Assembly (NCBI GenBank): GCA_031370565.1
Contig: JANMQO010000163.1
Location: 7,576 to 71,575 of the forward strand
DNA from: Chloroflexota bacterium
Lineage (GTDB): Bacteria; Chloroflexota; Limnocylindria; Limnocylindrales; CSP1-4
Reading direction: 5' to 3'
DNA length: 64,000 nt
In this document: positions 5,334 to 38,798 of the stretch, piece after piece
Layout: each line of letters starts with the position of its first letter
Position numbering within the stretch: the first letter of the stretch is position 1
Notes under the pieces: generated by a model
Databases searched by the model: none
The model's input: only the letters and a program-made list of their open reading frames with translations
What the model was told of the DNA's origin: nothing
Program-made: the position numbers and the translations under genes

Positions 5334-6230
5334 GTGACCACGATCGCCGCCGCCAACCGCGCTCCGGACTCCGTCCGTCGGCGGCCGTCCACGACCCGCT
5401 GGGCCCAGCGGCTGCTGTTCGTCGGGTTGTTCGTCTACTTCCTGCTGCCGATGGTCGCGGTGGTCATCTACTCGCTGGCCACCCGCTGGACGGCCCACAT
5501 CCTGCCCGACGGGTACACGCTCGACTGGTGGAGCCGGGTCTTCAGCGACCCGACGGTCGTGGGCGCCTTCGGTACGACCCTCGTCCTGGCCACGCTCACC
5601 GCGATCCTCGACATCGCCCTGGTCGTGCCGGCTGCCTACTGGGCCCGGGTCCGCAACCCGCGGATCCGGCCGGTGATCGAGCTGGCCGCGGCGATCCCGT
5701 TCGCGCTGCCCTACCTGGTCATCGGCTTCGCCCTGCTCCAGTTCGCCGGCGTCGTGGTGCCGGGACTCCAGGGCACGTTCCCGCTCCTCGTCCTCGGCCA
5801 CGCCGCGATCGCCTTCCCGTTTCTCTATTGGGCGGTCGACGGGGCGATGGCCGCGGCCGGGATCGAGCGACTCTCCGAAGCGGCCGAGACGTGTGGCGCC
5901 AGCCCGTTCCAGATCGTCCGACGGGTCGTGCTGCCGAACATCACGCCCGGGATCGTGAGCGGCGCGCTCCTCGCCTTTGCAACGAGCTTCGGCGAGTTCG
6001 CCATGGTCCAGACGGTCGCCCGGGGCGTGTACACGATCCCGATCTGGAGCGCCGCGGCGATCCGCTCCTACTCCGGCGAGCCGGGCTCGTTCAACCGCCT
6101 GGCCGCGGTGACCACGATCAGCTTCGTCGTGCTGTTCGTCCTGTCCGCGATCGTGGTCTACTGGAACCGCGGGCAGACAGTCCGGATCTTGGCGGGCGCT
6201 CGTGCCATCGAACAGCGGGAGGGCACATGA
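5334..6230 (+). CDS. ABC transporter permease (second membrane subunit)
   Basis: Multi-TM permease with an EAA-like loop region. Its stop overlaps the ATPase start (ATGA). Confidence 0.8.
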   Translation: MTTIAAANRAPDSVRRRPSTTRWAQRLLFVGLFVYFLLPMVAVVIYSLATRWTAHILPDGYTLDWWSRVFSDPTVVGAFGTTLVLATLTAILDIALVVPAAYWARVRNPRIRPVIELAAAIPFALPYLVIGFALLQFAGVVVPGLQGTFPLLVLGHAAIAFPFLYWAVDGAMAAAGIERLSEAAETCGASPFQIVRRVVLPNITPGIVSGALLAFATSFGEFAMVQTVARGVYTIPIWSAAAIRSYSGEPGSFNRLAAVTTISFVVLFVLSAIVVYWNRGQTVRILAGARAIEQREGT

Positions 6231-7474: not shown

Positions 7475-8014
7475 TCACGCGTCGGTGGTCGGATCGGTCG
7501 GTAGCGACGCCTGGACCGCTGGCGCGGCGCGGGATCGTCGGGCCGCTGGGCCGACCGGCGAGGCTGGCTTGGGCGCTCGCGTGCGGACCACCCGAGCGGC
7601 TGCGGTCGTGCTGTCGGACGCAGGCTCGGTCGCCCGGCCGGTCGCCCGGTCGCGCGTCGCCGGCTTGGGCGATCGTGGCGCCGGCTGGCTGGCCGCAGCA
7701 CGGACCGCGCCCGCTGCCTCGTGGGCCACATCCTTGACGACCTGGCCGGCCTGGGCCCGGGCGTTGGCCACGATCAACTCGGACAGCTCGGTGAGGAGCG
7801 TCTCGATCTCCGCCACCTCGGCGTGGGCGGCACTCAGCTGGGCCGCCCGCCGGGCCACCGCGTCGCCGCTCGCGCTGGCCTGCTGGCGGGTCCGCTTGGC
7901 CGCTTCGGTCCGGGCTCGTTCGAGCCGTCGCTCCAGTCGGCCGAGCAGCTTCCAGGCCCTGCGAAAGGCCGTGTCCGCCGTGTTGCGCCGCCGCTTCGCG
8001 TCCGCTTTCGCCAT
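7475..8014 (-). CDS. hypothetical protein, N-terminal coiled coil and Ala/Pro-rich disordered tail
   Basis: GAGGTG SD 9 nt upstream of the ATG. Residues are MAKADAKRRRNTADTAFRRAWKLLGRLERRLERARTEAAKR... No family was recognised. Confidence 0.5.
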   Translation of the reverse strand: MAKADAKRRRNTADTAFRRAWKLLGRLERRLERARTEAAKRTRQQASASGDAVARRAAQLSAAHAEVAEIETLLTELSELIVANARAQAGQVVKDVAHEAAGAVRAAASQPAPRSPKPATRDRATGRATEPASDSTTAAARVVRTRAPKPASPVGPAARRSRAAPAVQASLPTDPTTDA

Positions 8015-8235: not shown

Positions 8236-9135
8236 TTAGCGGCGTGTGTCCGGCTCGTCAACGAGCGCCCTGGCGCCGTCACTAGCCGAACCTGCCGCCC
8301 GGGCCAGCCTGCTGGGCCTCCGGTCGGCGGCCCGCAGGGCGACCTCGATGAAGGGTCGGATCCGCATCGCAACCTCGAGACGGGTCCGGCGAAAGGCCTC
8401 CAGTCGCTCGGCGTCCGTGCCCTCCACCTCGGCCGGATCGTCGAGCCCCCAGTGCAGCGAGTTGTACGACCCGGGAAAGACTGGACAGCTTTCCCGGGCA
8501 CGGTCGCAGACGGTGATGACGTAGTCGAAACGTTCGTCGAGGACGTCACTGATGGGCCGGCTGCGAGCGCCAGACCAGTCGATGCCGATCTCGCCCAGCG
8601 CCTGGACGGTGTAGGAGTTGACCCCCTTGGGTTCCGTGCCGGCGGAAGCGACCTCGAAGTCCGGACCCCCGTAGTGGGCCAACAGCGCCTGGGCGATCTG
8701 GCTCCGGGCGCTGTTCCCGGTGCACACGAACAGGACCCGGATCGGAGCGGCGGTCATGGTGGCGTCCTCTCTGGCCGCCCGGGCGCGGCCGGCGGCATCA
8801 ATCGTGAGCTCGATGTCGACGAGCTCGGCTTCCAGTCGGTCGAGGTCATCGCGCTGGCGCGCGATCGCGCTGCGCTGCGTGGCGATGAGCGGTGCCAGGT
8901 CGAGGTCAAGCCCACCCCGTTCCAGACACAGCCGGGCGATCCGGCCGGCATCTTCGGGACCGAGCCCGAGTCGACGCAGGGTGATGACCAGGCGCAGCCG
9001 CGCCAGATCGTCCTGCGTGTACTCGCGGTAGCCGTTGTCGCGGCGAAGCGGGCGCGGCAGGACGCCCACCGACTCATACCAGCGCACCGCGGACGGAGCG
9101 ATGCCGGCACGCCGACCGAGCTCGGAGACCTTCAT
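8236..9135 (-). CDS. MerR-family HTH regulator fused in one ORF to a low-molecular-weight-PTP-type arsenate reductase (ArsC)
   Basis: N-terminal MKVSELGRRAGIAPSAVRWYESVGVL...GYREYTQDDLARLRLVITLRRLGL is a MerR HTH plus a coiled-coil dimerisation helix. The C-terminal IRVLFVCTGNSARSQIAQALL...DYVITVCD is the LMW-PTP/ArsC CX5R P-loop fold. There is no stop codon between the two halves. Confidence 0.8.
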   Translation of the reverse strand: MKVSELGRRAGIAPSAVRWYESVGVLPRPLRRDNGYREYTQDDLARLRLVITLRRLGLGPEDAGRIARLCLERGGLDLDLAPLIATQRSAIARQRDDLDRLEAELVDIELTIDAAGRARAAREDATMTAAPIRVLFVCTGNSARSQIAQALLAHYGGPDFEVASAGTEPKGVNSYTVQALGEIGIDWSGARSRPISDVLDERFDYVITVCDRARESCPVFPGSYNSLHWGLDDPAEVEGTDAERLEAFRRTRLEVAMRIRPFIEVALRAADRRPSRLARAAGSASDGARALVDEPDTRR

Positions 9136-9143
9136 GACGCAAC

Positions 9144-9172
9144 CGTATACCTTCGAGTTGCTGGAAGGTCAA
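9144..9172 (-). promoter_or_regulatory. MerR-type promoter: -35 TTGACC, 19-bp spacer containing the dyad ACCTTC-N9-GAAGGT, -10 TACGGT ending 6 nt before the ATG (leaderless transcript)
   Basis: The minus-strand read is gcTTGACCttccagcaactcgaaggtaTACGGTtgcgtcATG. A 19-bp spacer with an internal palindrome is the hallmark of MerR/CueR-regulated promoters. Confidence 0.55.
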
Positions 9173-9518
9173 GCGGACCCGGCCGTCGCTGGCCGGCCGT
9201 CGCGATTCGGGCTCCGAATGCCGATGGTTGCGTCGTGTACGGGCGGATCATCGAACCGGGCGGCGTCGGGCCGCGTGCCGCGCGCCGCGCCACAGACGTC
9301 GCCGGGCGGCGCCCGCGTGTGCTGCACATGCCAACGCCGATCGAGCAGCGTGGGCTGAGGACCGACGGAGATGCCCGGCCTGCGCCGAGCTGTACGACTG
9401 GTTCGGCTGGGGTGTCATGGCGTGGACGATCGGAGACACTCGTGAACACCCGATGATCGCGACGTCAAGACGTCGCCCGCCGCGCAGCCCATTGCGGTGC
9501 GCGCCAGCGCGGCACCTC

Positions 9519-9911
9519 ATGCGCTATCGTCGCGGGGTGCATCTCGTCCTCATCGGCCTCGGCGGGTTCGCGGGGGCGATCGCTCGCTACGTCGTCGACG
9601 GCTGGGTGTCCGGCCTGACCCGCGGCGGGTTCCCGTGGGGCACCCTGGCGATCAATGCCTCGGGCTCGTTCGTGCTCGGGCTGCTGGCCGCGCTGACCAT
9701 CGACCGGAGCCTGCTCAGTCCCGAGATCCGGGGACCGGTCATGATCGGGTTCATTGGCGCCTACACCACCTTTTCCACCTGGATGCTCGAGAGCTCGCGA
9801 CTCCTCGAGGCCGGCAACTGGGCGGCGGCGCTGGGCAACCTTGGCGGCTCGGTCGCCGTCGGGTTGCTGGCCGTCTTCGCCGGGCTCACCGTGGGCCGGA
9901 TCATCGCGTAG
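9519..9911 (+). CDS. crcB: fluoride ion channel CrcB/FluC
   Basis: 131 aa with four TM helices. Residues GGFAGAIARY...GFPWGTLAINASGSFVLGLL...GFIGAYTTFSTW match the CrcB family. Confidence 0.85.
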   Translation: MRYRRGVHLVLIGLGGFAGAIARYVVDGWVSGLTRGGFPWGTLAINASGSFVLGLLAALTIDRSLLSPEIRGPVMIGFIGAYTTFSTWMLESSRLLEAGNWAAALGNLGGSVAVGLLAVFAGLTVGRIIA

Positions 9912-9920
9912 GAGGCTCGG

Positions 9921-10319
9921 ATGAAGATCGAGGGACCGGCACTCCTCGTCCGGATCTACATTGGCGAGGCGGACCGCTGGCACGGCCGACCGCTCTATCA
10001 GGCCATCGTCGAAGTCCTGCGTGAGCGCGGCATGGCCGGCACCACGGTCCTGCGTGGGATCGAGGGCTTCGGCGCCAAGGCGCATCTGCATACCGCGCGG
10101 ATCCTGCGCCTCTCGGAGGACCTGCCCATCCTCATCGAGGCAGTCGACCTGGAGGACCGCATCCGGGCCGTCTTGCCCGAGCTTGACGCGATGGTGGCCG
10201 ACGGCCTGATCACCCTCGAACGGATCGAGGTCGTCGCCTACCGCGGCACCGCTCCGGACGCCGCCGCTCCCGACGCTGCCGCCTCCGACGCCGCGGCCAA
10301 CGCCGTCGACAAGCGTTAA
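9921..10319 (+). CDS. DUF190 (PII-like) protein, commonly co-operonic with crcB
   Basis: LLVRIYIGEADRWHGRPLYQAIVEVLRERGMAGTTVLRGIEGFG matches DUF190. It starts 10 nt after the crcB stop. Confidence 0.8.
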   Translation: MKIEGPALLVRIYIGEADRWHGRPLYQAIVEVLRERGMAGTTVLRGIEGFGAKAHLHTARILRLSEDLPILIEAVDLEDRIRAVLPELDAMVADGLITLERIEVVAYRGTAPDAAAPDAAASDAAANAVDKR

Positions 10320-10347
10320 CACACTGGAAACAGGCTGACCACCGCTC

Positions 10348-10367
10348 GTTCATCCGTATGGACGAAC
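10348..10367. promoter_or_regulatory. inverted repeat GTTCATCC-gtat-GGACGAAC ~70 nt upstream of pstS (candidate PhoP/RegX3-type site)
   Basis: It is palindromic apart from one position and contains the GTTCA core of PHO boxes. Confidence 0.3.
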
Positions 10368-10433
10368 CTCTTGGCGCACTGACATCGCAGCAGCGCGGGC
10401 CCATGCCGCCCGCGATCAGGAGGACACGATCAC

Positions 10434-11345
10434 GTGACGACGACCACAGCGACGCGCCTCGGCAGTCTCGCCCTCGCAGCCGGCCTGTTGCTGGCGGCCT
10501 GCGGCGGTTCGGCCAGCTCGACGCCAACGACGGCCGGCTCGACGAACGCGGCCGGAGCCTCGGCCACAGGCGCAGGTACCTGCGTGGCGGGCAGCATCAC
10601 CGCCGCCGGCTCGACGGCCCTCCAACCGCTCGTCGAGAAGGCGGCCAAGAACTATGGGGCCGCCTGCCCGGGCGCCACGGTCAACGTCCAGGGCGGCGGT
10701 TCCGGCACCGGACTGACCCAGGTGCTGGCGGGCGCCATCGTCATCGGCGACTCCGACATCTTTGCGGCAGACAAGCTCCAGGCCGCCGACGCGTCCCAGC
10801 TGGTCGACCACCAGGTCGTCCGCCAGGGCTGGGTGGTGGTCGTCAACAAGAGCGTCACCGGCGTCACCAACCTGACCAGCCAGCAGGCCAAGGACATCTG
10901 GACCGGCAAGATCACCAACTGGAAGGATGTCGGGGGCAACGATCAGGCCATCGTGCTCATCCTGCGTCCGCAGTCGTCGGGCACCCGGGCCACGTTCAAG
11001 AAGGTCGTCCTCGGTGGTGCGGACGAGGCAGCCGGCCAGGCGCTGACCGAAGACTCCAACGGTGCGGTCACCCAGGCCGTGGTGGCGACACCCGGTTCGA
11101 CCAGCGTCATCGGGTTCGCGTTCTACCAGCAGAACAAGGCCAGCCTGACTGGCCTCCAGCTCGATGGCATCGACGCGACCGTCGCGAACATGGCGAGCGG
11201 CACGTACAAGCTGCAAGCGTTCGGGCACATGTACACGAAGGGCCAACCAGACGGGCTGACCAAGGCCTTCCTGGACTACATGCTCAGCCCGGACGTCCAG
11301 AAGAACCTCGTGCCGAGCCTGTTCTACGCCCCAACCCAGCCGTAG
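10434..11345 (+). CDS. pstS: phosphate ABC transporter substrate-binding lipoprotein
   Basis: GTG start with a CAGGAGG SD. Lipobox LLAAC. SITAAGSTALQPL...GGGSGTG PstS motifs. Confidence 0.9.
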   Translation: MTTTTATRLGSLALAAGLLLAACGGSASSTPTTAGSTNAAGASATGAGTCVAGSITAAGSTALQPLVEKAAKNYGAACPGATVNVQGGGSGTGLTQVLAGAIVIGDSDIFAADKLQAADASQLVDHQVVRQGWVVVVNKSVTGVTNLTSQQAKDIWTGKITNWKDVGGNDQAIVLILRPQSSGTRATFKKVVLGGADEAAGQALTEDSNGAVTQAVVATPGSTSVIGFAFYQQNKASLTGLQLDGIDATVANMASGTYKLQAFGHMYTKGQPDGLTKAFLDYMLSPDVQKNLVPSLFYAPTQP

Positions 11346-11367
11346 CCCAACGATAGTCGCCCGAACC

Positions 11368-11437
11368 GCGCCCCGAGACCGTCCGGGGCGCCAGCCACAG
11401 GACCACGCGAACACCGGCCCGAGCGGGCCGGTGTTCG
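11368..11437 (+). promoter_or_regulatory. two consecutive intercistronic stem-loops between pstS and pstC (partial terminator / mRNA-stabilising element)
   Basis: The first is gcgccccg-agaccgtc-cggggcgc (8-bp stem). The second is cgaacaccggccc-gagc-gggccggtgttcg (perfect 13-bp stem), followed directly by the pstC SD GGAG. Confidence 0.5.
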
Positions 11438-11455
11438 CCCCGTTGGAGTCCGCCG

Positions 11456-12391
11456 ATGACCGATAGCGCCGTCCCGTTCAGGTCGACCGTCCTGCGTCGA
11501 CCGTTGACGCGCCGGGAGCGGCTCGATCTCCCGCGACGGCTGACCCTGGTCGCGGCCGCCATGGTGATCGTATTGGTCGGCCTGCTGCTCGCGTTCATCA
11601 GCTGGAACGGCGTCCAGCTCTTCAGCGCGTCCCATGTCTCCCTGGGAGACGTCCTGTCCACGCGCTGGCAGCCCGACAGCAGCGCCGGCAACACGTACGG
11701 CATGTTGCCGTTCATCGCCGGCACACTGGCGGTCACCATCGTGGCCGCCCTCATCGCGACGCCGCTGGCCGTGGGTCTGGCCCTGTTCATGGCCGAGATC
11801 GCACCTCGCTGGGCGCGCTCGATCACCCAGCCTGCGATGGAGGTGTTCGTCGGCATTCCGAGCGTCGTCTACGGTTGGCTCGGCATCACCATCCTCGTCC
11901 CGTTCCTGCGCGAACACTTGTCGGGCGTTGGCTTCACGCTCGGCTTCAGCTGGTTCGCCGGCTCACTCGTGCTGGCTCTGATGATCCTGCCGACCATCGC
12001 CACCATCACCCACGATGCCTTTCGGGCGGTGCCGGCCGAGTTGCGCAGCGGGTCGCTCGCGCTGGGCACGACCCGCTGGCAGACGATCCGGCACATCCTG
12101 GTGCCAGCCGCCAAGAATGGAATCGCCACAGCGGTCGTGCTGGGCATGATGCGCGCCGCGGGCGAGGCGCTGGCGGTCCAGATGGTCATCGGCAACCGAC
12201 CGGTCATGCCGACCAGCTTGACCCAGCCGCTCACAACGCTGACCAGCCAGATCACCCTGGACATGGGCAACACGGTGGCCGGCGAACCGTGGAACCAGGC
12301 CCTCTGGACGATGGGCCTGATCCTCCTGCTCCTCTCCTTCGGCTTCGTCGTCCTGGTCCGAGTGCTCGGTCGCGGGAAGGCCCGCGCATGA
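11456..12391 (+). CDS. pstC: phosphate ABC transporter permease
   Basis: Six-TM permease. The order pstS-pstC-pstA-pstB supports the call. Confidence 0.9.
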   Translation: MTDSAVPFRSTVLRRPLTRRERLDLPRRLTLVAAAMVIVLVGLLLAFISWNGVQLFSASHVSLGDVLSTRWQPDSSAGNTYGMLPFIAGTLAVTIVAALIATPLAVGLALFMAEIAPRWARSITQPAMEVFVGIPSVVYGWLGITILVPFLREHLSGVGFTLGFSWFAGSLVLALMILPTIATITHDAFRAVPAELRSGSLALGTTRWQTIRHILVPAAKNGIATAVVLGMMRAAGEALAVQMVIGNRPVMPTSLTQPLTTLTSQITLDMGNTVAGEPWNQALWTMGLILLLLSFGFVVLVRVLGRGKARA

Positions 12392-13275
12392 GGCGCGTCC
12401 TGCTGGCCGATCGGATCGCGACAGGCGTGCTGTGGGCGATCGCCGTCGTCGTCGTACTCATCCTGCTCGCGATCATCGGGCATTTCGTGATCGGTGCGAT
12501 CGCCATGCTGGGTCCGTCGTTCCTGCTCTCCGAGCCGAGCGACTCGAGCGTGGGAGGCGTGGGCCCGGTCCTGTTCAATTCCGTCTACGTGCTGGTCCTG
12601 ACCCTGCTGCTGACGGTGCCGCTGGGTACGCTCGGCGGGATCTACCTGGCGGAGTACGCCGGGTCTGGACCGCTGACCAGGATCATCCGGTTCTGCCAGG
12701 AACTCATCGGCTCGGTGCCGTCGATCGTCGTCGGGCTGTTCGGCCTGGCCCTCTTCGTCAACGCGACGCACTGGGGATTCACGGCCCTGGCCGGCGCGCT
12801 CGCCCTGAGCGTGTTCAACCTGCCGCTCATGGCACGCCTGGCGGAACAGGCCTTCCGGGCCGTGCCGGACGACGAGCGTAGCGCGAGCCTGGCCCTGGGC
12901 AGTAGTCAGTGGCAGACGATCCGCCACGTGGTCCTGCCGCTGGCCATCCCGGGCCTCGTCACGGCGATCATCCTGACGGCCGGCCGGATCTTCGGCGAAG
13001 CCGCCGCACTGCTCTTCACCGCAGGGCTGTCGACGCCGACGGGGTACGATTTCGCCAACCTCAACCTGGGCGACCCGCGCTCTCCATGGAGTCCATTGCA
13101 TCCTGCGACGACCCTCTCCGTGTATATCTGGAAGTTGAACTCCGAGGGGCTCGGCAGCTTCGTGCGCCAGATCGCCGACGGCAGCGCAGCGGTCCTGGTG
13201 GTCATGGTGCTCGTGTTCAACCTCGGCGCACGCGGGCTCGGTCGGCTGCTCCAGCGCCGCATCACCGGTGCCTGA
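12388..13275 (+). CDS. pstA: phosphate ABC transporter permease
   Basis: The internal ATG 12388 overlaps the pstC stop (ATGA). The long upstream track ORF is an artefact. Confidence 0.85.
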   Translation: MRRVLLADRIATGVLWAIAVVVVLILLAIIGHFVIGAIAMLGPSFLLSEPSDSSVGGVGPVLFNSVYVLVLTLLLTVPLGTLGGIYLAEYAGSGPLTRIIRFCQELIGSVPSIVVGLFGLALFVNATHWGFTALAGALALSVFNLPLMARLAEQAFRAVPDDERSASLALGSSQWQTIRHVVLPLAIPGLVTAIILTAGRIFGEAAALLFTAGLSTPTGYDFANLNLGDPRSPWSPLHPATTLSVYIWKLNSEGLGSFVRQIADGSAAVLVVMVLVFNLGARGLGRLLQRRITGA

Positions 13276-13290
13276 AGGGTCGACCAGACA

Positions 13291-14244
13291 ATGACGATCA
13301 GCAACCCGGAGGACGCGATGACCATCCTCGCCCCGCCCACCATCGCCCATGGTGCCATGCCGTCCAGCGGTGGCGCGGTCGCTTCAGACCGGCCGGTCGC
13401 GCCGGGCTCGCCTGGGCCGGAGACCGGCTTCGGGGCCGATGTCGAGACCGGACTCACGACGGGCCACCGCGTTGCGGCCAAGCTGGAGGTGAGCAACCTG
13501 CGCGTGTCCTACGGCCCCAAGCTCGCCGTTCGCGACGTGACGATGCGGATTGAGGCACACGCCGTCACCGCCTTCATCGGTCCGTCTGGGTGCGGCAAGA
13601 GCACGATCCTGCGCTGCTTCAACCGGATGAACGAGCTCGTGCCGGGGGCGAGGATGGAGGGCAGCGTCTGGCTCGACGGTGAGGACATTTACGCCCCCGA
13701 TGTGCAGCCGGTGGCCGTCAGGACTCGAATCGGGGTCGTCTTCCAGCGACCCAACCCGTTTCCCATGTCGATCTACGAGAACGTGGCCTACGGACCGCGT
13801 CGGCACGGGGTGCGCGAGCGGGCCCGGCTCGATGAGACCGTCGAGCGCTGTCTCCGGCGGGCAGCACTCTGGGATGAGGTCAAGGACGAGCTCCGGCGCA
13901 AGTCAGGCCTGGCCCTGTCTGGCGGCCAGCAACAGCGCCTGTGCATCGCCCGCACGCTGGCCACGGATCCAGAGGTCGTCCTGATGGACGAACCGGCCTC
14001 TTCGCTCGACCCGATCTCGACCTTGAAGATCGAGGAACTCATCCACGAGCTGCGCGACACGTACACCATCGTCATCGTCACCCACAACATGCAGCAGGCG
14101 TCGCGCGTGAGCGATCGAACCGCGTTCTTCACGATGGGCGATGATCGTGCCGGCTACCTGGTCGAGGTGGGCGACACGACCCAGATCTTCACCAACCCCA
14201 GAGAGCGGCTGACCGAAGACTACGTGTCCGGTCGGTTCGGCTGA
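13291..14244 (+). CDS. pstB: phosphate ABC transporter ATP-binding protein (with ~45-aa N-terminal extension; start uncertain)
   Basis: [36 protein letters not shown], and the PstB-typical C-terminal half. Confidence 0.9.
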
Positions 14245-14254
14245 GAGGAGCGCG

Positions 14255-14998
14255 ATGAACCCGGACAGCGGCGCTGATGTGGACGGCGAGGGCGCCGGCG
14301 TCCGAGACGTCCGGTCCGATGGCGGGGAGGAGCGCCGGGCGGCCCTGCGCCCGCCGCTCGACCGAGGCGAGCGCGAGGTCAAGGACGGCGTGCTGCGGAT
14401 GGGCGTGCTGGTCGAGGACCAGATCCTGGCGGCCCTGGACGCCCTGATCCGGCACGATGCGGACGCCGCCCTGGCGGTCATCCGCGGGGATCGCCAGATC
14501 AATGAGGCGCAGCGGAACCTGTCGACCCTCATCGCCACCGTCATCGCCCTCCAGCAGCCGGTTGCTCGTGACCTGCGCTTCCTGCTCTCGCTCGACCACG
14601 TGACCTACGAGCTGGAGCGGATGGGCGATCACGCCGCCTCGGTGGCCAAGCAGGCACGCAAGCTGGCCCCACACCCGCCACTCGGCGCCTATGTCGACCT
14701 GCCCGAGATGGCCCGCCTGGCCGCCTCGCTGGTCCGCGGAATCCTGGGTGCGCTGGTCGACATTGACCAGGCTGCCGCGCGGGCCGTTGCGCTGCGAGAC
14801 GACGACATGGATCGGCTCTACCACCGGACCTTCGAGCAGACGCTGGAGCTCATGCGGGCCGACCCGGCCAATGTCGATCCGGGTGTACGCATCCTGTTCG
14901 CCGCCCACTACCTGGAGCGAATCGGCGACCGGGTCACGAATATCGCCGAGGGCATCGTCTTCCTGGCCACGGGCGAGAGCGTCGACCTGAATCCGTAG
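14255..14998 (+). CDS. phoU: phosphate signalling complex protein PhoU
   Basis: Two PhoU repeats, with ELERMGDHAASVAK and HYLERIGDRVTNIAE motifs. Confidence 0.9.
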   Translation: MNPDSGADVDGEGAGVRDVRSDGGEERRAALRPPLDRGEREVKDGVLRMGVLVEDQILAALDALIRHDADAALAVIRGDRQINEAQRNLSTLIATVIALQQPVARDLRFLLSLDHVTYELERMGDHAASVAKQARKLAPHPPLGAYVDLPEMARLAASLVRGILGALVDIDQAAARAVALRDDDMDRLYHRTFEQTLELMRADPANVDPGVRILFAAHYLERIGDRVTNIAEGIVFLATGESVDLNP

Positions 14999-15022
14999 TC
15001 GACTCGGGGGCGAAATCGGGCA

Positions 15023-15550
15023 TTGCGTCAACACCGCACTGGGCGTCACACTCGAGCCATGGCCGTCACCGCGATCCACCTGCTCCGCCATGCGCACGCC
15101 GGCGATCCGATCAAGTGGTCCGGGTCCGATTTCGACCGACCGCTCTCGGCTAAGGGACGGGACCAGATGGCCCGACTTGGGTCCCTCCTCGCGCTGACGG
15201 GGTTCAGCCCGGACGTGATCGTCGCCTCACCGCGTCTTCGGGCGGTCGAGACGGCCGAGCTCCTGGCAGGGCGACTCGGCGTTCGGTCCCGGACCGACGT
15301 GCGCATGGCCGACTCACTCTCGCTCAGCGTCGTCGAGCAGATCCTGGTCGATGCCGGCGACCCGGCCCGGCCGCTCCTGGTGGGCCACGACCCTGACTTC
15401 AGCGAGCTACTTGCGCTGCTCACCGGCGCGCTCGACATCCCGATGCGCAAGGGCGCCCTCGCTCGGGTCGACGCCGAGCGTCCGCTCCAGCCCGGCTCCG
15501 GTACCCTGCGCTGGCTGCTGCCCCCCGAGCTCGTGCCGGATCTCGGCTAG
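15023..15550 (+). CDS. histidine phosphatase superfamily protein, SixA-like phosphohistidine phosphatase
   Basis: LLRHAHAG...LSAKGRDQ...VIVASPRLRAVETAEL...LLVGHDP is the RHG motif of branch-1 histidine phosphatases. The start is either TTG 15023 or ATG 15059. Confidence 0.7.
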   Translation: MRQHRTGRHTRAMAVTAIHLLRHAHAGDPIKWSGSDFDRPLSAKGRDQMARLGSLLALTGFSPDVIVASPRLRAVETAELLAGRLGVRSRTDVRMADSLSLSVVEQILVDAGDPARPLLVGHDPDFSELLALLTGALDIPMRKGALARVDAERPLQPGSGTLRWLLPPELVPDLG

Positions 15551-15611: not shown

Positions 15612-15992
15612 TCAAGCCAATGGTGGCCGACCGGGCCCCCGTCCGCGCAGCTGGCTGGCTGGGATCAGTCCGCCCGGAACGAGTCCGAGCGCGATCGCGC
15701 CGAGTCGATCCGCGAGCTTGGGTGCGAGCCGATACCAGATCCACGTGCCACGTCGCTCGCCGTCGACAACGCCAGCCTTGCGCAGCACGCGCAGATGGTG
15801 CGACACGGTCGGCTGGCGGACGCTGCAGCAGGAACCGAAATCGCAGGCACAGACCTCGCCTTGACCCGCCAACTGCCGGACGATCGCCAGGCGGGTCGGG
15901 TCGGCCAGCGCCTGGAGAAGTTGGATGTCCGGGTCGAGGCTACGCGTCTTCACCGGGGCAGCATATCGACAATCATCTATATTGACAAACAT
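15612..15992 (-). CDS. arsR: ArsR/SmtB-family metalloregulator
   Basis: LQALADPTRLAIVRQLA...GEVCACDF...QPTVSHHLRVLRKAGVV is a wHTH with a CxC metal(loid) site. The ATG lies inside the AT-rich operator and the -10 TATATC abuts the start codon. Confidence 0.85.
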   Translation of the reverse strand: MFVNIDDCRYAAPVKTRSLDPDIQLLQALADPTRLAIVRQLAGQGEVCACDFGSCCSVRQPTVSHHLRVLRKAGVVDGERRGTWIWYRLAPKLADRLGAIALGLVPGGLIPASQLRGRGPGRPPLA

Positions 15993-16012
15993 CGATATAT
16001 CGCCCAGACTCC
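15963..16012. promoter_or_regulatory. AT-rich palindromic operator/promoter island between divergent arsR and arsM
   Basis: ATATCGAcaatcatctatattgacaaacaTCGATAT plus the perfect palindrome CGATATATCG. A TTGACA -35-like hexamer faces arsM. The local GC content is far below that of the window. Confidence 0.5.
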
Positions 16013-16053: not shown

Positions 16054-16884
16054 ATGCCCGACGCCACGCAGCAGATCCACGACGAGGTCCGCGCCCGATA
16101 CGCCGAGGCCGCCTTGTCCGTCCTGGACCCCACCCTGCCGACCGGTGGGGCGCGTTCCTCCACCACGCGGACCGACGCCGGATCGTGCTGTGAGCCGAGC
16201 GCGGCGGAGACGGCGGTTGGCGGCGGATGCTGCTCCGGCGCGGTGTCGCCTGATGTCTTCGGCGCCCAGTTGTATGACGCGGCCGACCGCGGCAGCCTGC
16301 CGGACGCGGCGACCCTGGCCAGCCTGGGCTGCGGGAACCCGACGGCGGTCGCAGAGCTCCACGAGGGCGAGACGGTCCTCGACCTGGGCTCCGGCGGTGG
16401 GATCGACGTTCTCCTGTCTGCCCGCCGGGTGGGTCCGAGCGGCCGAGCCATCGGCCTCGACATGACCCCCGAGATGCTGACCCTCGCCCGCCGCAACGCG
16501 GTCGAGGCCGGCGCGACCAACGTCGAGTTCATCGAAGGGACGATCGAGGCGATCCCCCTGCCCGCCGCCAGTGTCGACGTGGTCATCAGCAACTGCGTCA
16601 TCAACCTGGCTGCCGACAAGGGTGCCGTGCTGACCGAGATCGCCCGAGTCCTGCGCCCCGGCGGTCGCGTGGGCGTGAGCGACGTGGTCGCCCGCAATGA
16701 CCTGAGCCCAGCCCAGCGCGCCGAGCGGGGCAGCTACACCGGCTGCATCGCCGGGGCGCTGTCGTTCGCCGAGTACGAAGCGGGCCTCCGTGCGGCGGGT
16801 TTGGTGGACATCTCCGTCCGACCGACCCATGAGGTCGCTGACGGCCTGTTCGCGGCGATCGTCCGGGCGACGAAGCCCGGCTGA
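16054..16884 (+). CDS. arsM: arsenite S-adenosylmethionine methyltransferase
   Basis: GAGGA SD before the ATG. SAM motif VLDLGSGGGIDVLLSA. Conserved Cys residues (CCEP, CGNP, CIAG) are typical of ArsM. Confidence 0.85.
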   Translation: MPDATQQIHDEVRARYAEAALSVLDPTLPTGGARSSTTRTDAGSCCEPSAAETAVGGGCCSGAVSPDVFGAQLYDAADRGSLPDAATLASLGCGNPTAVAELHEGETVLDLGSGGGIDVLLSARRVGPSGRAIGLDMTPEMLTLARRNAVEAGATNVEFIEGTIEAIPLPAASVDVVISNCVINLAADKGAVLTEIARVLRPGGRVGVSDVVARNDLSPAQRAERGSYTGCIAGALSFAEYEAGLRAAGLVDISVRPTHEVADGLFAAIVRATKPG

Positions 16885-28150: not shown

Positions 28151-29848
28151 CTACCCGCCGGTCAACCAGGCCTCGACATCGGCCAGCGGCCGCACAGACC
28201 GTTCGCCGCTCGCACGCTCGGTGACCTCGGCGCCACCCGCGGCCAGCGAGCGCGGGCTGATGGTCACGATCCAGGGCATCCCGAGCAGCTCCGCGTCGGT
28301 GAACTTCACCCCGGGCGACTCGTCGCGATCGTCCCACAGGACGTCGCGCCCGGCCGCCGCGGCAGCATCGTGGAGCGACTCGGCCACCTCGGCCACCCGC
28401 GGTTCCTTGTTCGCCCCGATCGACACGAGATGCGCCCGGTACGGCGCCACTTCCTCCGGCCAGATGATCCCCTTGTCGTCGTGATGCGCCTCGACAATGC
28501 AGGCGACGTTGCGCCCGACGCCGATCCCGTACGAGCCCATGACGATGGAATGCGCCTTGCCGTCCTCGCCGAGATAGCTCGCCCCGACCGCATCGGTGAA
28601 CTTCGTGCCGAGCTTGAAGATGTTGCCGACCTCGATCCCGTTGCGCAGGATGGCAGGCTGACCGCAGACAGGACAGGGATCGCCCTCCTGGACGTTGGTC
28701 AGGTCGGCGACGACGTCTGGCCTGAAGTCACGCCCCACGTTCACGTTCCGGTAGTGGAACCCTTCGCGGTTCGCACCCGCGACGAGGTTCGCCGAGCGCG
28801 CCACCAGCTCGTCGACCGCGATGACCGTGCCGTGTGCGCCGATCGGCGAGCCATAGCCAGGCTCCATTCCGGCCGCGCGGATCTCCTCGATCTGGGCTGG
28901 CCGGATGCCACCGACCGCGTGCACGGCATTGCTCAGCTTGGTCTCGTTGACGTCGTGGTCGCCACGGACGATGGCCGTGATGAGGCGACCGTCGCCGCTG
29001 ACGAAGAAGGCGGCCTTGGCCGTCCGGTCCGCTCCGATGCCCAGGAACGCCGTGAGCAAGGCGATCGTGGTCGTGCCCGGTGTCGCGACCTCCTCCAGGG
29101 AACGAGCTGGCTCCGGCTCAGGGTCAGGTTTGCGGACCGCCGCCACCTGACGGTTCGCGGCGTACCCGCATGATCCGCACAGCACCAGGACGTCCTCGCC
29201 GGCGGGGTTCAGGAACATGAATTCGTGCGCCTGCGAGCCACCCATGATCCCCACGTCGGAGGCGACCGCGACCGTCTCGATCCCCAGTCGCTCGAACGTG
29301 CGGACGTAGGCGTCATGCTGGGCCTGGTAGCTGACGTCGAGCCCAGCCTCGTCCCGGTCGCAGCTGTAGGCGTCCTTCATGACGAATTCGCGGACGCGGA
29401 TGAGCCCGCCCCGAGCACGCGGCTCATCGCGCCACTTGGTCTGGAAGTGGTAGACCTGCACCGGCAGCTGGCGGTACGACTTCACGAGGTCAGCAAGGAG
29501 GATGCCCACGACCTCCTCGTGGGTCATGGCCAGGACCATGTCCCGGCCGTTGCGGTCCTTGAACCGGGTCATCTCCGGGCCGATCGCGTCGTAGCGACCG
29601 CTCGCCCGCCAGATGTCGGCCGGGTGGACGACTGGCATCTCCATCTCCTGGCCACCGATTCGGTTCTGTTCCTCGCGGATGACCTGCTCGACGCGGTCGT
29701 GGACACGCTTGCCCAATGGGAGCAGCGAATAGATCCCCGAGCCGAGCTGGCGGATGTAGCCGGCCCGGACCAGTAGGCGATGCGAGGGCATCTCGGCGTC
29801 GGCGGGATTGTCTCGGAGGGTACTGAAGAACAGGTGACTCATACGCAT
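28151..29848 (-). CDS. proS: proline--tRNA ligase (bacterial type with INS editing domain)
   Basis: MRMSHLFFSTLRDNPADAEMPSHRLLVRAGYIRQL closely parallels the E. coli ProS N-terminus. Class-II motifs are present. Confidence 0.9.
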   Translation of the reverse strand: MRMSHLFFSTLRDNPADAEMPSHRLLVRAGYIRQLGSGIYSLLPLGKRVHDRVEQVIREEQNRIGGQEMEMPVVHPADIWRASGRYDAIGPEMTRFKDRNGRDMVLAMTHEEVVGILLADLVKSYRQLPVQVYHFQTKWRDEPRARGGLIRVREFVMKDAYSCDRDEAGLDVSYQAQHDAYVRTFERLGIETVAVASDVGIMGGSQAHEFMFLNPAGEDVLVLCGSCGYAANRQVAAVRKPDPEPEPARSLEEVATPGTTTIALLTAFLGIGADRTAKAAFFVSGDGRLITAIVRGDHDVNETKLSNAVHAVGGIRPAQIEEIRAAGMEPGYGSPIGAHGTVIAVDELVARSANLVAGANREGFHYRNVNVGRDFRPDVVADLTNVQEGDPCPVCGQPAILRNGIEVGNIFKLGTKFTDAVGASYLGEDGKAHSIVMGSYGIGVGRNVACIVEAHHDDKGIIWPEEVAPYRAHLVSIGANKEPRVAEVAESLHDAAAAAGRDVLWDDRDESPGVKFTDAELLGMPWIVTISPRSLAAGGAEVTERASGERSVRPLADVEAWLTGG

Positions 29849-31757: not shown

Positions 31758-33296
31758 TCAGTGGGCCTGCTCGAGCAGGGCGATGGCACCGTCGAGGCGC
31801 TCGAGGGTACGCGTGCGACCGAGCGTGACCAGCGTCTCGAACAGGGGCGGCGTGGCCGTCCGGCCGGTGGTCGCCACCCGGATCGCCATGAACAGGTCGC
31901 CGGCCTTCCAGCCGCGCTGCTCGGCCAGTGCCCGCAGCCCGGCCTCCAGCGAGGCCGCCTCGAACTCGAGACTGCCGTCGCCGTCAACGTCGCCGTCGCC
32001 GCCGGCCGCGATGGGCCGGGCCGCGCTGAGACCGGCCAGCGTCGTCGCCGCGTCCCAGCGCTTGGGGACCAGCAACGCCGGCTCCACCGTGATCCGGTCG
32101 ACGAACAGGAAGCCGACCAGATCGCCGATCGCACCGAGCACCGGCAACCGCTCCTGAACGAGCGGGATGAGCGCCAGCAACTCGACGTCGGTCGGCATCC
32201 GTTCGATCCGAGCCGCGGCCACTTCGGCGGCCAGGAACGGTCTGAGCCGGTCGACCAGCTCGTCCGCGGACAGTTTGCGGATCCATTGTCCGTTGAGCCA
32301 CTCGAGCCGTTCGCGATCGAAGACCGCGCCGCCCTTGTGGACGGCCTCGAGCGCAAAACGAGCGCACAGTGCGTCGAGCGCGAGCACCTCTTCCTCGGTC
32401 CCGGTCGACCAACCGAGCAGGGCCAGGAAGTTGACCAGCCCTTCGCGGATGAAGCCCTCCGCGATGTAGTCCGAGATGGCCGTCTGGGTCTTGCGCTTGC
32501 TCATCTTCGTGCGATCGGGGTTGAGGATGAGTGGCAGGTGGGCAAACCGTGGCTCCGCATAGCCGAGCGCGCGGAACAGCAGGATGTGTTTGGGCGTGTT
32601 GCTCAGGTGGTCCTCACCCCGGATCACGTGACTGATCTGCATGGCGGCATCGTCGACGACCACGGTGAAGTGGTAGAGCGGCGTCCCATCGCCGCGGACG
32701 ATGACGAAGTCGCCGCCGAGGTTGGCCACGTCGATCTCCACCCAGCCGCGTACCAGGTCCTCGAAGCCGACGACGCCCTCCCCCACCCGGAAACGGAGCG
32801 CTGCGGCGCGACCCTCGGCCACCAGTCCGGCTCGTTCCGTGGCGCTCAGCCGGGCGCAGCGGCCGCTGTAGCGGGGCGGCAGCTTGGCCGCTTCGAGTCG
32901 CCGACGCTCCGCGTCCAGCTCTTCTGGGCTGCAGTAACAGGGATAGGCCTGGTCGGCCGACAACAGGCGTTCGGCCTCCGCCGCATAGCGTGGCAGCCGC
33001 TCCATCTGACGATACGGGCCGTGCGCGCCCCGACCCTCCGCCCCGGCCACACCCGGACCCTCGTCCCAGGTCAGGCCCAGCCAGTGCAGACCGTCGAGGA
33101 TATCCCGCTCGTAGGCCAGCGTGGACCGTGCGACGTCCGTGTCCTCGAGCCGCAGGATGAACGTCCCGCCCATGCGTCGGGCGAAGAGGAAGTTGAACAG
33201 GGCCGTGCGCGCCGTGCCGATGTGCAGCGGGCCGGTGGGGCTGGGAGCGATCCGGACCCGGATGTCCGGGCCGCTGGTTGGCAATGCGTCCGTCAT
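31758..33296 (-). CDS. gltX: glutamate--tRNA ligase
   Basis: HIGH-region variant PSPTGPLHIGTART and KMSKR. Confidence 0.9.
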   Translation of the reverse strand: MTDALPTSGPDIRVRIAPSPTGPLHIGTARTALFNFLFARRMGGTFILRLEDTDVARSTLAYERDILDGLHWLGLTWDEGPGVAGAEGRGAHGPYRQMERLPRYAAEAERLLSADQAYPCYCSPEELDAERRRLEAAKLPPRYSGRCARLSATERAGLVAEGRAAALRFRVGEGVVGFEDLVRGWVEIDVANLGGDFVIVRGDGTPLYHFTVVVDDAAMQISHVIRGEDHLSNTPKHILLFRALGYAEPRFAHLPLILNPDRTKMSKRKTQTAISDYIAEGFIREGLVNFLALLGWSTGTEEEVLALDALCARFALEAVHKGGAVFDRERLEWLNGQWIRKLSADELVDRLRPFLAAEVAAARIERMPTDVELLALIPLVQERLPVLGAIGDLVGFLFVDRITVEPALLVPKRWDAATTLAGLSAARPIAAGGDGDVDGDGSLEFEAASLEAGLRALAEQRGWKAGDLFMAIRVATTGRTATPPLFETLVTLGRTRTLERLDGAIALLEQAH

Positions 33297-37640: not shown

Positions 37641-38798
37641 TCAGTTCCCGCCGGCCGTGACCGTGACGGAGCCCTTGGTGAAGCCAGCGCCCTTGACGTC
37701 CATGTCGCTCAGGGTAGCCAGCGCCTTCTGTGCGAGATCCGTCCGGACGGCGGCCGGATCCGGGTCCTTGGTGATGACCTTGCCGGCCTTGGCGATGGCC
37801 ACGGTCTGCGTGTAGAAGCCGGCCGGCAGGATGCCGATCCCGTCCGGCGCCGGCCAGATGAGCGGGTTGACCTCGTTCATCTGCCAGGCCTGATGGCCCT
37901 TGCCCAGCGTGCTGCCGGACTTGAGCACAATGTCGACGCAGTCGGCGGCATTGTCGCGGCAGTGGATCCAGCCCTTGAAGGTGGCCGCCAGGAAGCGGAC
38001 CGCGATGTCCTCGTTGCCCGGCTTGGCCAGCCAGCTGGCTCGGGCGAAGATCGCGTCCTGAAGCATCGCCGTCCCGACCTGGTTGTAGTCGATGACGTTG
38101 AGATCCTCGGGCTGGTACAGCTTGCCGGTGGCCGGGTTGGTCGCCTCGAGCACCTGTGCGTACTCGTTGTAGATCATCGCCTCAGCCACATCGATCTGCT
38201 TGTTGAGCAGGAGCGACATGTCAAAGGGCTGGATGACCTTCTCGTAGCCCTTGCCCGCCTCGAGCCCAGCCTTGTTGGCCCCAGCGGTCACCTCGAACTC
38301 GTTGCCGAAGTCCCAGACGCCCACCTTCTTGCCCTTGAAGTTGGCGGGGCTGGTGATGCCGTTGTCTTTCCAGGATACTGAGCGCGTGCCCGAACGCTGG
38401 TAGATCTGGGCGATGTCCACGAGGTCCGAGCCGGCCTCGCGGGCCTGCAGCACCTTGGGCACCCAGGCGAGCGTGAACTCAGGGCCGTCGGGCGCCGAGC
38501 CGACCTGCTGCGGTACGACATCGGGACCGCCCGGCAGGATGGTGACGTCGAGCCCGGCGTCCTTGTAGTAGCCCAGCGCAGCCGCAGCGAGCTCGCCGGC
38601 GAACTGCGCCTGCGGGACCCATTGGAGCTGGACGCGGATCTTGACCATGGCCGGTGCCGCGCTGGCCGGTGCCTGTGAGGTGGTCGCCTGGCTGGCCGGT
38701 GCCGCCGATGGCGCCGTACTGGCGGCTCCCGGCGAACACGCCGCGGCAAGGAACAGGGCGCCCGCACTCAGGGCGCTCAGTTTCCGAATGGACTGCAT
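37641..38798 (-). CDS. ABC transporter substrate-binding lipoprotein, NMT1/THI5-like (SsuA/TauA/ThiY family)
   Basis: Lipobox LAAAC. NMT1-like fold residues. Last gene of the AT-permease-ATPase-permease-SBP operon. Confidence 0.75.
   Translation of the reverse strand: MQSIRKLSALSAGALFLAAACSPGAASTAPSAAPASQATTSQAPASAAPAMVKIRVQLQWVPQAQFAGELAAAALGYYKDAGLDVTILPGGPDVVPQQVGSAPDGPEFTLAWVPKVLQAREAGSDLVDIAQIYQRSGTRSVSWKDNGITSPANFKGKKVGVWDFGNEFEVTAGANKAGLEAGKGYEKVIQPFDMSLLLNKQIDVAEAMIYNEYAQVLEATNPATGKLYQPEDLNVIDYNQVGTAMLQDAIFARASWLAKPGNEDIAVRFLAATFKGWIHCRDNAADCVDIVLKSGSTLGKGHQAWQMNEVNPLIWPAPDGIGILPAGFYTQTVAIAKAGKVITKDPDPAAVRTDLAQKALATLSDMDVKGAGFTKGSVTVTAGGN

Follow-up and report, generated by a model that had tools for sequence, protein, structure and literature searches.

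The fusion gene and its promoter

The window analysed here is a stretch of 64,000 nucleotides (nt) from a Chloroflexota bacterium of the order Limnocylindrales. On its minus strand lies a gene that joins a MerR-type transcriptional regulator to an arsenate reductase (ArsC) of the low-molecular-weight protein tyrosine phosphatase (LMW-PTP) type. The open reading frame (ORF) of this MerR-ArsC fusion, at 8236-9135, comprises 299 codons from the ATG at 9135-9133 to the TAA at 8238-8236 and contains zero internal stops. Its features are collected in Table 1.

Table 1. Features of the MerR-ArsC locus and of related loci (positions in the window unless a locus is named).
Feature	Position	Strand	Remarks
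-35 element TTGACC	9167..9172	-	read directly; overlaps left arm of operator
MerR operator dyad ACCTTC-N9-GAAGGT, ACCTTCCAGCAACTCGAAGGT	9149..9169	-	spans spacer, overlaps -35
-10 element TACGGT (TANNNT)	9142..9147	-	19 bp from -35
Start ATG of full-length protein	9133..9135	-	predicted transcription start, 6 nt after -10
MerR-ArsC fusion ORF	8236..9135	-	299 amino acids (aa), 32.9 kDa
MerR winged helix-turn-helix, CueR-like	8935..9135	-	aa 1-67; Pfam MerR_1 and MerR
Cys70 (helix alpha4)	8926..8928	-	family-invariant, family-specific (Phe in CueR)
Long dimerisation helix alpha5	8767..8898	-	aa 80-123; AlphaFold2 prediction, block pLDDT 78-83
Internal Shine-Dalgarno-like motif AGAGAGGA	8765..8772	-	within linker codons, 7 nt before internal ATG
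In-frame internal ATG, Met127	8755..8757	-	predicted start of free ArsC, 173 aa, 18.9 kDa
LMW-PTP-type arsenate reductase domain	8329..8742	-	aa 132-269; Pfam LMWPc
P-loop C138-T-G-N-S-A-R144-S145 (CX5R)	8701..8724	-	corresponds in alignment to B. subtilis ArsC C10...R16
Redox pair Cys210 and Cys217 (VCDRARESCP)	8485..8508	-	C82 and C89 of thioredoxin-coupled ArsC
Asp233 in HWGLDDP	8437..8439	-	general acid D105
crcB, DUF190, pstS (above cutoff), pstC, pstA, pstB, phoU, SixA-like histidine phosphatase	9510-15550	+	divergent from fusion gene
arsR (ArsR/SmtB, CxC...CC motif)	15612-15995	-	NF033788, 91.5 bits, cutoff 55
arsM, arsenite methyltransferase	~16054-16884	+	NF008823, 282, cutoff 263
YfcE-like metallophosphoesterase, related loci	L009 5118-5858; L015 ~5286; L020 ~5638; L086 5908-6627; L103 1087-1806 (-); L149		
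Metallophosphoesterase in divergent box-controlled operon	L008 4409-5137	-	

The N-terminal half is recognised by two Pfam models of the MerR winged helix-turn-helix (HTH) at residues 1-67, MerR_1 (PF13411; E 3e-14, 53.2 bits against a cutoff of 21.6) and MerR (PF00376; 37.2 bits against 28.2). Its best matches in NCBIfam, where the score lies below the equivalog cutoff, and in PDB are to CueR. The PDB sequence matches further include CadR, MerR and SoxR, and SoxR and NmlR appear as weak NCBIfam matches of the fusion protein. Residues 1-104 align with E. coli CueR without a gap, and the invariant Cys70 and Asp77 of the fusion family correspond to Phe70 and Ser77 of CueR. The metal loop of CueR (C112/C120), the cysteine loop after alpha5 that characterises the CueR/ZntR/MerR metal-sensing subgroup, has no counterpart in the fusion. 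Zero cysteines occur between Cys70 and Cys138, and the MerR half holds no cluster of three cysteines. In an AlphaFold2 monomer model (mean predicted local distance difference test, pLDDT, 82.5; predicted template-modelling score, pTM, 0.66) the HTH at residues 3-22 is followed by the wing, alpha3, alpha4 and a predicted helix of 44 residues (80-123), the long coiled-coil helix typical of MerR proteins. After this alpha5 come an 8-residue linker, an alpha/beta domain (132-269) and a disordered tail (275-299). The ArsC domain takes the place where MerR-family proteins carry their effector module, such as a metal loop or a ligand pocket.

In the C-terminal half, Pfam places LMWPc (PF01451; E 4e-18, 66.4 bits against a cutoff of 23.2) at residues 134-259, and the best NCBIfam match is the thioredoxin-type ArsC of the pI258 family. 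Foldseek comparisons with ArsC structures gave target-normalised template-modelling (TM) scores of 0.87-0.94 at identities of 37-47%. Deinococcus indicus ArsC2 (8p5n) shares 47% identity with the domain at a target-normalised TM-score of 0.91, and B. subtilis ArsC (1jl3) shares 41%. Among the PDB matches are ArsC structures in the reduced, intermediate and oxidised states (1jf8, 1lk0, 1jfv, 1z2d, 1z2e), a thioredoxin-ArsC complex (2ipa) and the pI258 ArsC-arsenite complex (1lju). Cys138, Arg144, Cys210, Cys217 and Asp233 align to C10, R16, C82, C89 and D105 and are invariant in 26 aligned members of the family. Judged by these catalytic residues, the ArsC half appears to be a complete thioredoxin-type arsenate reductase, with predicted activity.

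The fusion gene is preceded by a promoter whose -35 and -10 elements are separated by a spacer of 19 nt, TTCCAGCAACTCGAAGGTA (9166-9148, minus strand). Between the -10 and the ATG lie 6 nt, TGCGTC, a gap too short for a Shine-Dalgarno (SD) motif. In the window a single match to the composite pattern TTGACCTTC-N9-GAAGGT-N-TANNNT is present, and 100 dinucleotide shuffles yielded none. No further copy of the box was found in the 64 kb, where a site with two mismatches at 31788 is at chance level. A generic sigma-70 scanner misses the promoter because it accepts only spacers of 16-18 nt. A 17-bp reading, TTGACC-N17-TATACG, was rejected: the orthologs have GGTGTA or GGTCTA in that place, and the TANNNT at 19 bp is invariant.

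Conservation of the promoter was assessed over 72 nt around the start in 23 orthologous promoters. The 22 columns upstream of a conserved C (C23, one base before the -35) are unconserved, and C-TTGAC-CTTCaAG-N3-CTyGAAGGT-N-TA-NNN-T is invariant or nearly so, the operator arms being longer in most orthologs (ACCTTCaAG-N3-CTyGAAGGT) than in the window. Within the -35, GAC is invariant, and TT and C23 are at least 90% conserved; within the -10, variation is confined to the three middle bases, the T, the A and the last T being invariant. The 6 nt after the -10 are variable, with ATG or GTG 6 nt away in 21 promoters and 7 nt away in 2. Independent metagenome contigs show the same distance from -10 to start. 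This pattern is the footprint that would be expected of a functional MerR promoter with a leaderless mRNA. Box, 19-bp spacing and the distance from -10 to start are kept at 27 of 28 fusion loci (the box in 26 with at most two mismatches, in L016 by alignment), and only L018 is without the box. At about 54 loci with stand-alone ArsC relatives only, neither the box nor a MerR domain was found. A sequence-only reading of this DNA had described one uninterrupted ORF for a MerR regulator and an LMW-PTP arsenate reductase, a 19-bp-spacer MerR promoter with the dyad ACCTTC-N9-GAAGGT, and a leaderless start 6 nt past the -10. All three features were read directly in the DNA and hold in the relatives, the transcription start site itself being predicted. 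The same reading had also suggested that the protein may link the sensing of arsenate or thiol-redox state with reduction, and this link is putative.

The box also has a wider distribution. A metagenome-wide scan brought up numerous CueR-type promoters of a generic kind from unrelated bacteria, including those of small MerR genes; since the box is generic to CueR-like regulators, it is not by itself diagnostic of the fusion family. Seven loci (L089, L092, L099, L112, L132, L147, L164) on unrelated contigs carry stand-alone CueR-like MerR genes of 131-151 aa with the box in their own promoter and the start codon 6-8 nt after the -10. Because these small, leaderless, self-preceded MerR genes share the box, the fusion probably descends from such a gene.

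Some loci depart from the common layout. In L083, a complete chromosome, the ATG after the box and -10 (7914-8003) opens an ORF of 18 codons in another frame, and the fusion starts 53 nt further on; either the locus breaks the leaderless rule, or its long-read assembly contains an indel. L042 (6001-7110) contains two copies of promoter and box, and part of the MerR N-terminus is repeated there; the cause is either a partial duplication in tandem or a misassembly. Elsewhere in the window, two other genes are candidates for leaderless expression, with TAGAAT-N6-ATG (ORF 31758-33296, minus strand) and TATCCT-N7-ATG (ORF 28151-29848, minus strand).

Distribution of the fusion family

Homologs were sought among 5.8 billion clustered proteins, and species were counted on contigs from one genome per species. 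The best 120 homologs share 70-96% identity, are about 280 aa long and all combine MerR with LMWPc. The full-length fusion was found in about 24 species representatives and is still intact in full-length orthologs that share as little as about 60% identity. Nearly all carriers are labelled Chloroflexota, 'Chloroflexia' or Candidatus Limnocylindrales (class Limnocylindria), and L022 is labelled Actinomycetes. Clustering at 50% leaves few representatives. The family is narrow and clade-specific, yet frequent in soil metagenomes. The window protein has no exact match on record in public assemblies, and its nearest relative (P0001) is 96% identical. Five apparently distant fusions (P0127, P0131, P0152, P0186, P0218) look like frameshifted copies of the same family and not like separate lineages. 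The database names of the family, 'MerR family transcriptional regulator' and 'arsenate reductase', are automatic.

An assembly or sequencing artefact that joined two genes, the objection raised with the sequence-only reading, is refuted: the only trace of such errors are frameshifts in some long-read metagenome-assembled-genome loci of relatives (L015, L020, L022, L024), and the uninterrupted architecture recurs in more than 120 non-redundant proteins from ENA, JGI, NCBI and Logan assemblies as well as in the species mentioned above. That reading had also called the fusion unusual. It is unusual in kind, but it is not rare, being a conserved family of an abundant soil lineage; likewise, the joining of a regulator to the detoxifying enzyme is unusual in its MerR version, but ArsR-ArsC fusions were already known.

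A predicted internal start for the ArsC half

The gene carries signals for a second start within its own reading frame. Internal initiation at the methionine of MTAAP (residue 127), a possibility already raised from the window alone, has strong support from the orthologs. All 24 orthologs examined have an in-frame ATG (14) or GTG (10) placed 2-5 codons before strand beta1 of the ArsC domain. All 24 have an SD match of at least 4 nt located 5-10 nt before this internal start, and in 19 the match reaches 5 nt or more; in the remainder of these genes, the same test is passed by 4.1% and 0.9%, respectively. The linker residues vary (REDAT, YQEAPT, RKERP, SSEGIA, TQGGST, RRTIP and others), and the DNA retains GGAGG, AAGGA or GAGGA. 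The motif is built from AGA and AGG codons, which account for 24 of the 35 Arg codons in this place but for 46 of the 994 found elsewhere (odds ratio 45, p = 4e-22). At internal starts with Val, the codon is GTG without exception, whereas 30% of the Val codons in other places are GTG. Since the start codon turns over and the codon choice runs against the guanine-cytosine (GC) bias, selection appears to act at the level of RNA. SDs of the GGAGG type also precede other genes of the window, namely DUF190, pstS, phoU and those starting at 38798 (minus strand), 47117 (plus strand) and 50334 (plus strand). The fusion gene probably also makes a free ArsC from the internal start, which points to a pair of products like TipAL and TipAS.

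Genes behind the box and around the fusion gene

In the window, the box is predicted to control the fusion gene only. A co-transcribed arsenite efflux gene, which is the mark of an ars operon, is absent there and present in 13 of 27 related loci. In 11 of the 27 the next gene encodes a MIP channel, with an overlap of 4 nt in L083 and a gap of about 24 nt elsewhere, and ACR3 lies downstream in L007 (TIGR00832, 459 bits against a cutoff of 283 bits) and probably also in L022. In six loci, a YfcE-like metallophosphoesterase of about 241 aa is the first, leaderless gene behind the box. We know of no role of this enzyme in arsenic resistance, and none is encoded within the 64-kb window.

Two related loci contain a second, divergent box in a shared intergenic region (L008 5896-5930; L014 ~5898-5930), TTGACATTCAACCAACTTGAAGGTC-TAGCCT on the minus strand. 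In L008 it stands 5' of, and facing, a divergent set of genes for an ArsC with a three-helix-bundle N-terminus, a metallophosphoesterase and a MIP channel; in L014 it likewise faces divergently transcribed genes. A supposed second MerR paralog in L008 proved to be this second ArsC; L014 and L070 gave similar hits near the fusion gene.

Pairs of arsR and arsM lie beside the fusion gene in 11 related loci. The window has a divergent arsR-arsM pair 6.5 kb from the fusion gene, so that the genome possesses a classical As(III) sensor near MerR-ArsC. From the ars gene partners in the relatives it follows that the fusion locus is an arsenate-detoxification (ars) module in which the regulator is fused to its reductase.

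Comparison with known systems

At E. coli PcopA, CueR offers the closest likeness for the MerR half. Shared features are the gapless HTH alignment over residues 1-104, the half-sites (ACCTTCC...GAAGGT in the window, ACCTTCC...GGAAGGT at PcopA), the overlap of the box with a TTGACC -35, the 19-bp spacer and the long dimerisation helix, which in the fusion is predicted. Together, -35 and half-sites are near-identical (TTGACCTTCC...GAAGGT in the window against ...GGAAGGT), with 19-bp spacing in both. Unlike CueR, the fusion lacks the Cys112/Cys120 loop, its alpha5 exceeds that of CueR by about 13 residues and continues into an enzyme domain of 140 residues, and the regulator stands on its own leaderless promoter.

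The only well-studied parallel known to us is tipA of Streptomyces lividans, whose class includes SkgA and AlbA. It is an autoregulated MerR gene that yields TipAL and, by an alternative start, the more abundant effector domain TipAS (PMC7762955). In both systems a MerR gene stands on its own MerR-box promoter, as indicated by the box that directly precedes the gene in the window as well as in the orthologs. In both, a C-terminal domain recognises and neutralises a toxic agent by covalent cysteine chemistry, which for the fusion is predicted, and the fusion shows signals of a second in-frame start for the C-terminal domain alone. The effector differs, however: that of the fusion is an LMW-PTP arsenate reductase, and neutralisation would be catalytic instead of stoichiometric. 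The TipAS-type domain (PF07739) has zero Pfam matches in the fusion protein.

Fusions of ArsR with ArsC ('ArsRC') are common among the closest ArsC relatives, as seen from HTH_5 in P0158, P0207, P0219, P0240 and P0256. One such protein was reported to improve the detection of As(V) through its As(III)-sensing ArsR domain (PMC11672702). Like MerR-ArsC, these proteins consist of an arsenic regulator and, covalently attached at its C-terminal side, an LMW-PTP ArsC from the same subfamily, a design whose logic is to render the regulator arsenate-responsive. Unlike the ArsR/SmtB repressor, which leaves the DNA with As(III), the MerR activator of the fusion should stay bound and remodel the promoter; HTH_5, the ArsR/SmtB DNA-binding domain, has zero Pfam matches in the window protein. 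With TipA the fusion has the design in common but not the domain content, and with ArsR-ArsC the purpose but not the DNA-binding class.

Among enzymes, the ArsCs of S. aureus pI258 and B. subtilis and the ArsC2 of Deinococcus indicus share with the fusion the fold, the CX5R motif and the equivalents of Cys82, Cys89 and Asp105. They are free proteins of about 130-140 aa, whereas here the domain forms the C-terminal half of a transcription factor and scores below the equivalog cutoff. In the AqpS pathway of Sinorhizobium meliloti, ArsC reduces arsenate and arsenite exits by an aquaglyceroporin (PMC4531530). The arsR-aqpS-arsC-arsH cluster of that species has reductase and channel together, as do the 11 related loci in which the fusion gene is followed by MIP; it differs in that the MerR-type regulator is fused here and that the window has no channel gene.

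Proposed mechanism

MerR proteins bind between -35 and -10 elements separated by 19-20-bp spacers, and an effector bound at the C-terminal end of alpha5 causes the DNA to be untwisted and the promoter thereby activated. In thioredoxin-coupled ArsC, C10 is arsenylated and disulfides form successively between C10 and C82 and between C82 and C89, with a large local rearrangement that thioredoxin resets. These two properties could be combined in MerR-ArsC. A sigma-A promoter with an over-long 19-bp spacer and a CueR-type box would give a transcript that begins at the ATG or within one base of it and is leaderless. Translation from the 5' end would yield a dimeric MerR-ArsC whose N-terminal winged helix sits on the box. 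Arsenate entering through phosphate transporters, e.g., the Pst system encoded next door, would arsenylate Cys138, and the disulfide cascade from Cys138-Cys210 to Cys210-Cys217 would reshape the ArsC domain. This change of shape might be passed on through the 8-residue linker and alpha5, switching the bound dimer from a repressor to a DNA-distorting activator until thioredoxin resets it. The promoter would then raise expression of the fusion gene itself and, in many relatives, that of MIP or ACR3 and sometimes of the YfcE-like metallophosphoesterase. From the same mRNA, the internal ribosome-binding site and the Met127 start would supply free ArsC. As with TipAS and TipAL, the free ArsC could be the bulk enzyme and the full-length protein a minority sensor.

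A self-activating MerR regulator with an arsenate reductase as effector and its catalytic cycle as signal, for which DNA binding, activation, inducer, the two products and their ratio are predicted, is the reading that we favour, at somewhat less than even odds. The bolder claim, that this is the first arsenate-sensing transcription factor, a MerR-family 'trigger enzyme' signalling by its own catalytic disulfide cascade and organised as a TipA-like one-gene module with a leaderless sensor and an internal-SD reductase, is tentative and rather doubtful at present.

Several observations weigh against the favoured reading. For the whole family, transcription start, protein, binding and inducer are predictions from sequence. 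The orthologs are related, so the SD and promoter counts and p-values overstate their independence. The box, being generic for CueR-like regulators, precedes ordinary small MerR genes on unrelated contigs too, and cross-talk with a copper sensor is possible. The ArsC half lies below the NCBIfam equivalog cutoff (TIGR02691, 124.6 against 174.3 bits), as does the fusion for NF010053 (104.1 against 215 bits). No MIP or ACR3 gene occurs in the 64 kb and no exporter lies behind the fusion gene of the window. The monomer AlphaFold model (pTM 0.66) is uninformative on coupling between the domains. Finally, two outliers have lost catalytic cysteines, P0121 (57% identity) lacking Cys138, Cys210 and Cys217 and P0122 (54%) lacking Cys210, so that catalysis cannot be the signal in those two. 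Both come from single short metagenome contigs, still have the P-loop arginine as well as Cys70, and are candidates for pseudo-enzyme sensors. P0121 may indicate that some members sense through non-catalytic oxyanion binding or Cys70 chemistry.

Alternative explanations

In the strongest alternative, the product of the enzyme is sensed. Tethered ArsC would produce arsenite locally, and As(III) bound to Cys138, Cys210 and Cys217 and/or to the Cys70 of the partner subunit would be the signal, in place of the redox state of the enzyme. The invariance of Cys70, its restriction to this family and its retention in P0121 without the catalytic cysteines fit this explanation, as do the pI258 ArsC-arsenite complex (1lju) and the common occurrence of ArsR-ArsC fusions among the closest ArsC relatives, one of which was reported to improve As(V) detection (PMC11672702). 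The MerR half, however, offers neither a three-cysteine cluster nor the CueR C112/C120 loop, and, since arsM at a distance of 6.5 kb already has a canonical As(III)-type ArsR beside it, there is less need for another As(III) sensor; the proximity of Cys70 to the ArsC site is not readable from the monomer model. We regard product sensing as a serious but unlikely candidate.

The cysteines could also respond to more than arsenic. As a general switch for thiol or disulfide stress, the LMW-PTP domain would be a redox cysteine module reporting on oxidants or the thioredoxin pool, with arsenate as one of several triggers. In homologs, the equivalent of Cys210-Cys217 is a disulfide reducible by thioredoxin, the thioredoxin-ArsC complex 2ipa is among the structural matches, and the weak NCBIfam matches SoxR and NmlR are redox and electrophile sensors. 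Yet the operon partners identified (MIP, ACR3, second ArsC) are all arsenic-specific, as are the arsR-arsM pairs, and among the genes seen behind the box none encodes a peroxidase, thioredoxin or chaperone. Conservation also extends to the complete oxyanion P-loop and to the Asp that acts as general acid, and such a general switch seems improbable.

It is likewise improbable that the two halves are joined without working together. Such a passive 'Rosetta-stone' fusion would have arisen when loss of a stop merged an autoregulated CueR-like merR with a downstream arsC; the MerR half would be constitutive or respond to another signal, the ArsC half would only be an enzyme, and the internal SD and start would be the remnant of the old arsC gene and the source of all useful ArsC. 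The internal start does coincide with the N-terminus of stand-alone ArsC homologs, and small stand-alone MerR genes share the box and the leaderless layout. Against this, no locus examined has an unfused merR-arsC pair beside stand-alone ArsC relatives, and the fusion is kept to about 60% identity in about 24 species with the frame intact through a variable linker. The presumed ancestor's metal-binding loop has been lost, so that only the ArsC domain is left as a candidate effector module, and a relic SD in codons opposed to the GC bias of the genome would have decayed.

A sensor of phosphate status, in which phosphate or arsenate would be held non-covalently by the P-loop and the regulator would be part of the Pho neighbourhood instead of arsenic defence, is suggested by the neighbouring genes. 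The fusion gene adjoins pstSCAB-phoU; pst, phoU, PhoR, Ppx or CHAD genes are close to it in several related loci, and relatives are found near genes for a PhoR-like kinase, Ppx, CHAD/CYTH, GDPD and PHO4. P0121 retains the P-loop arginine without the catalytic cysteine. This explanation is nevertheless very improbable: no pst or pho gene was seen with the box in front of it, the Asp and all three catalytic cysteines are invariant in the main family, and arsenic islands are known to link ars with pst genes (PMC3834237).

Implications

In the literature searched, neither a MerR-ArsC protein nor control of ars genes by a MerR-type regulator is described, and a single gene that would serve as both arsenic alarm and remedy is new to it. 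Known ars operons stand under ArsR repressors that detect arsenite. To our knowledge, arsenate, the form that enters via phosphate transporters, is sensed only indirectly in these operons. A MerR activator with an arsenate reductase as its effector would, if the favoured reading is true, be a different solution from control by ArsR. It would add a catalytic domain to the effector modules of the MerR family and extend the design of two proteins from one gene, as in TipAL and TipAS, beyond antibiotic sequestration. The family makes it testable whether the catalytic cycle of an enzyme can drive DNA distortion of the MerR type. Practical use as a compact activator-based part for arsenate biosensors may be considered, and the gene provides a first regulatory handle on Limnocylindria, an abundant uncultured soil lineage.

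Other genes near the fusion

A search of the intergenic region shared with crcB for a fluoride riboswitch gave zero matches, both at the gathering threshold and at E <= 1. Downstream of the fusion gene, positions 7475-8014 (minus strand) encode an Ala/Arg-rich protein of 179 aa with a coiled-coil-like start and zero matches to Pfam or NCBIfam families. At the corresponding position in L081, a hypothetical protein of 184 aa lies beside Ppx-GppA and CYTH-CHAD genes.

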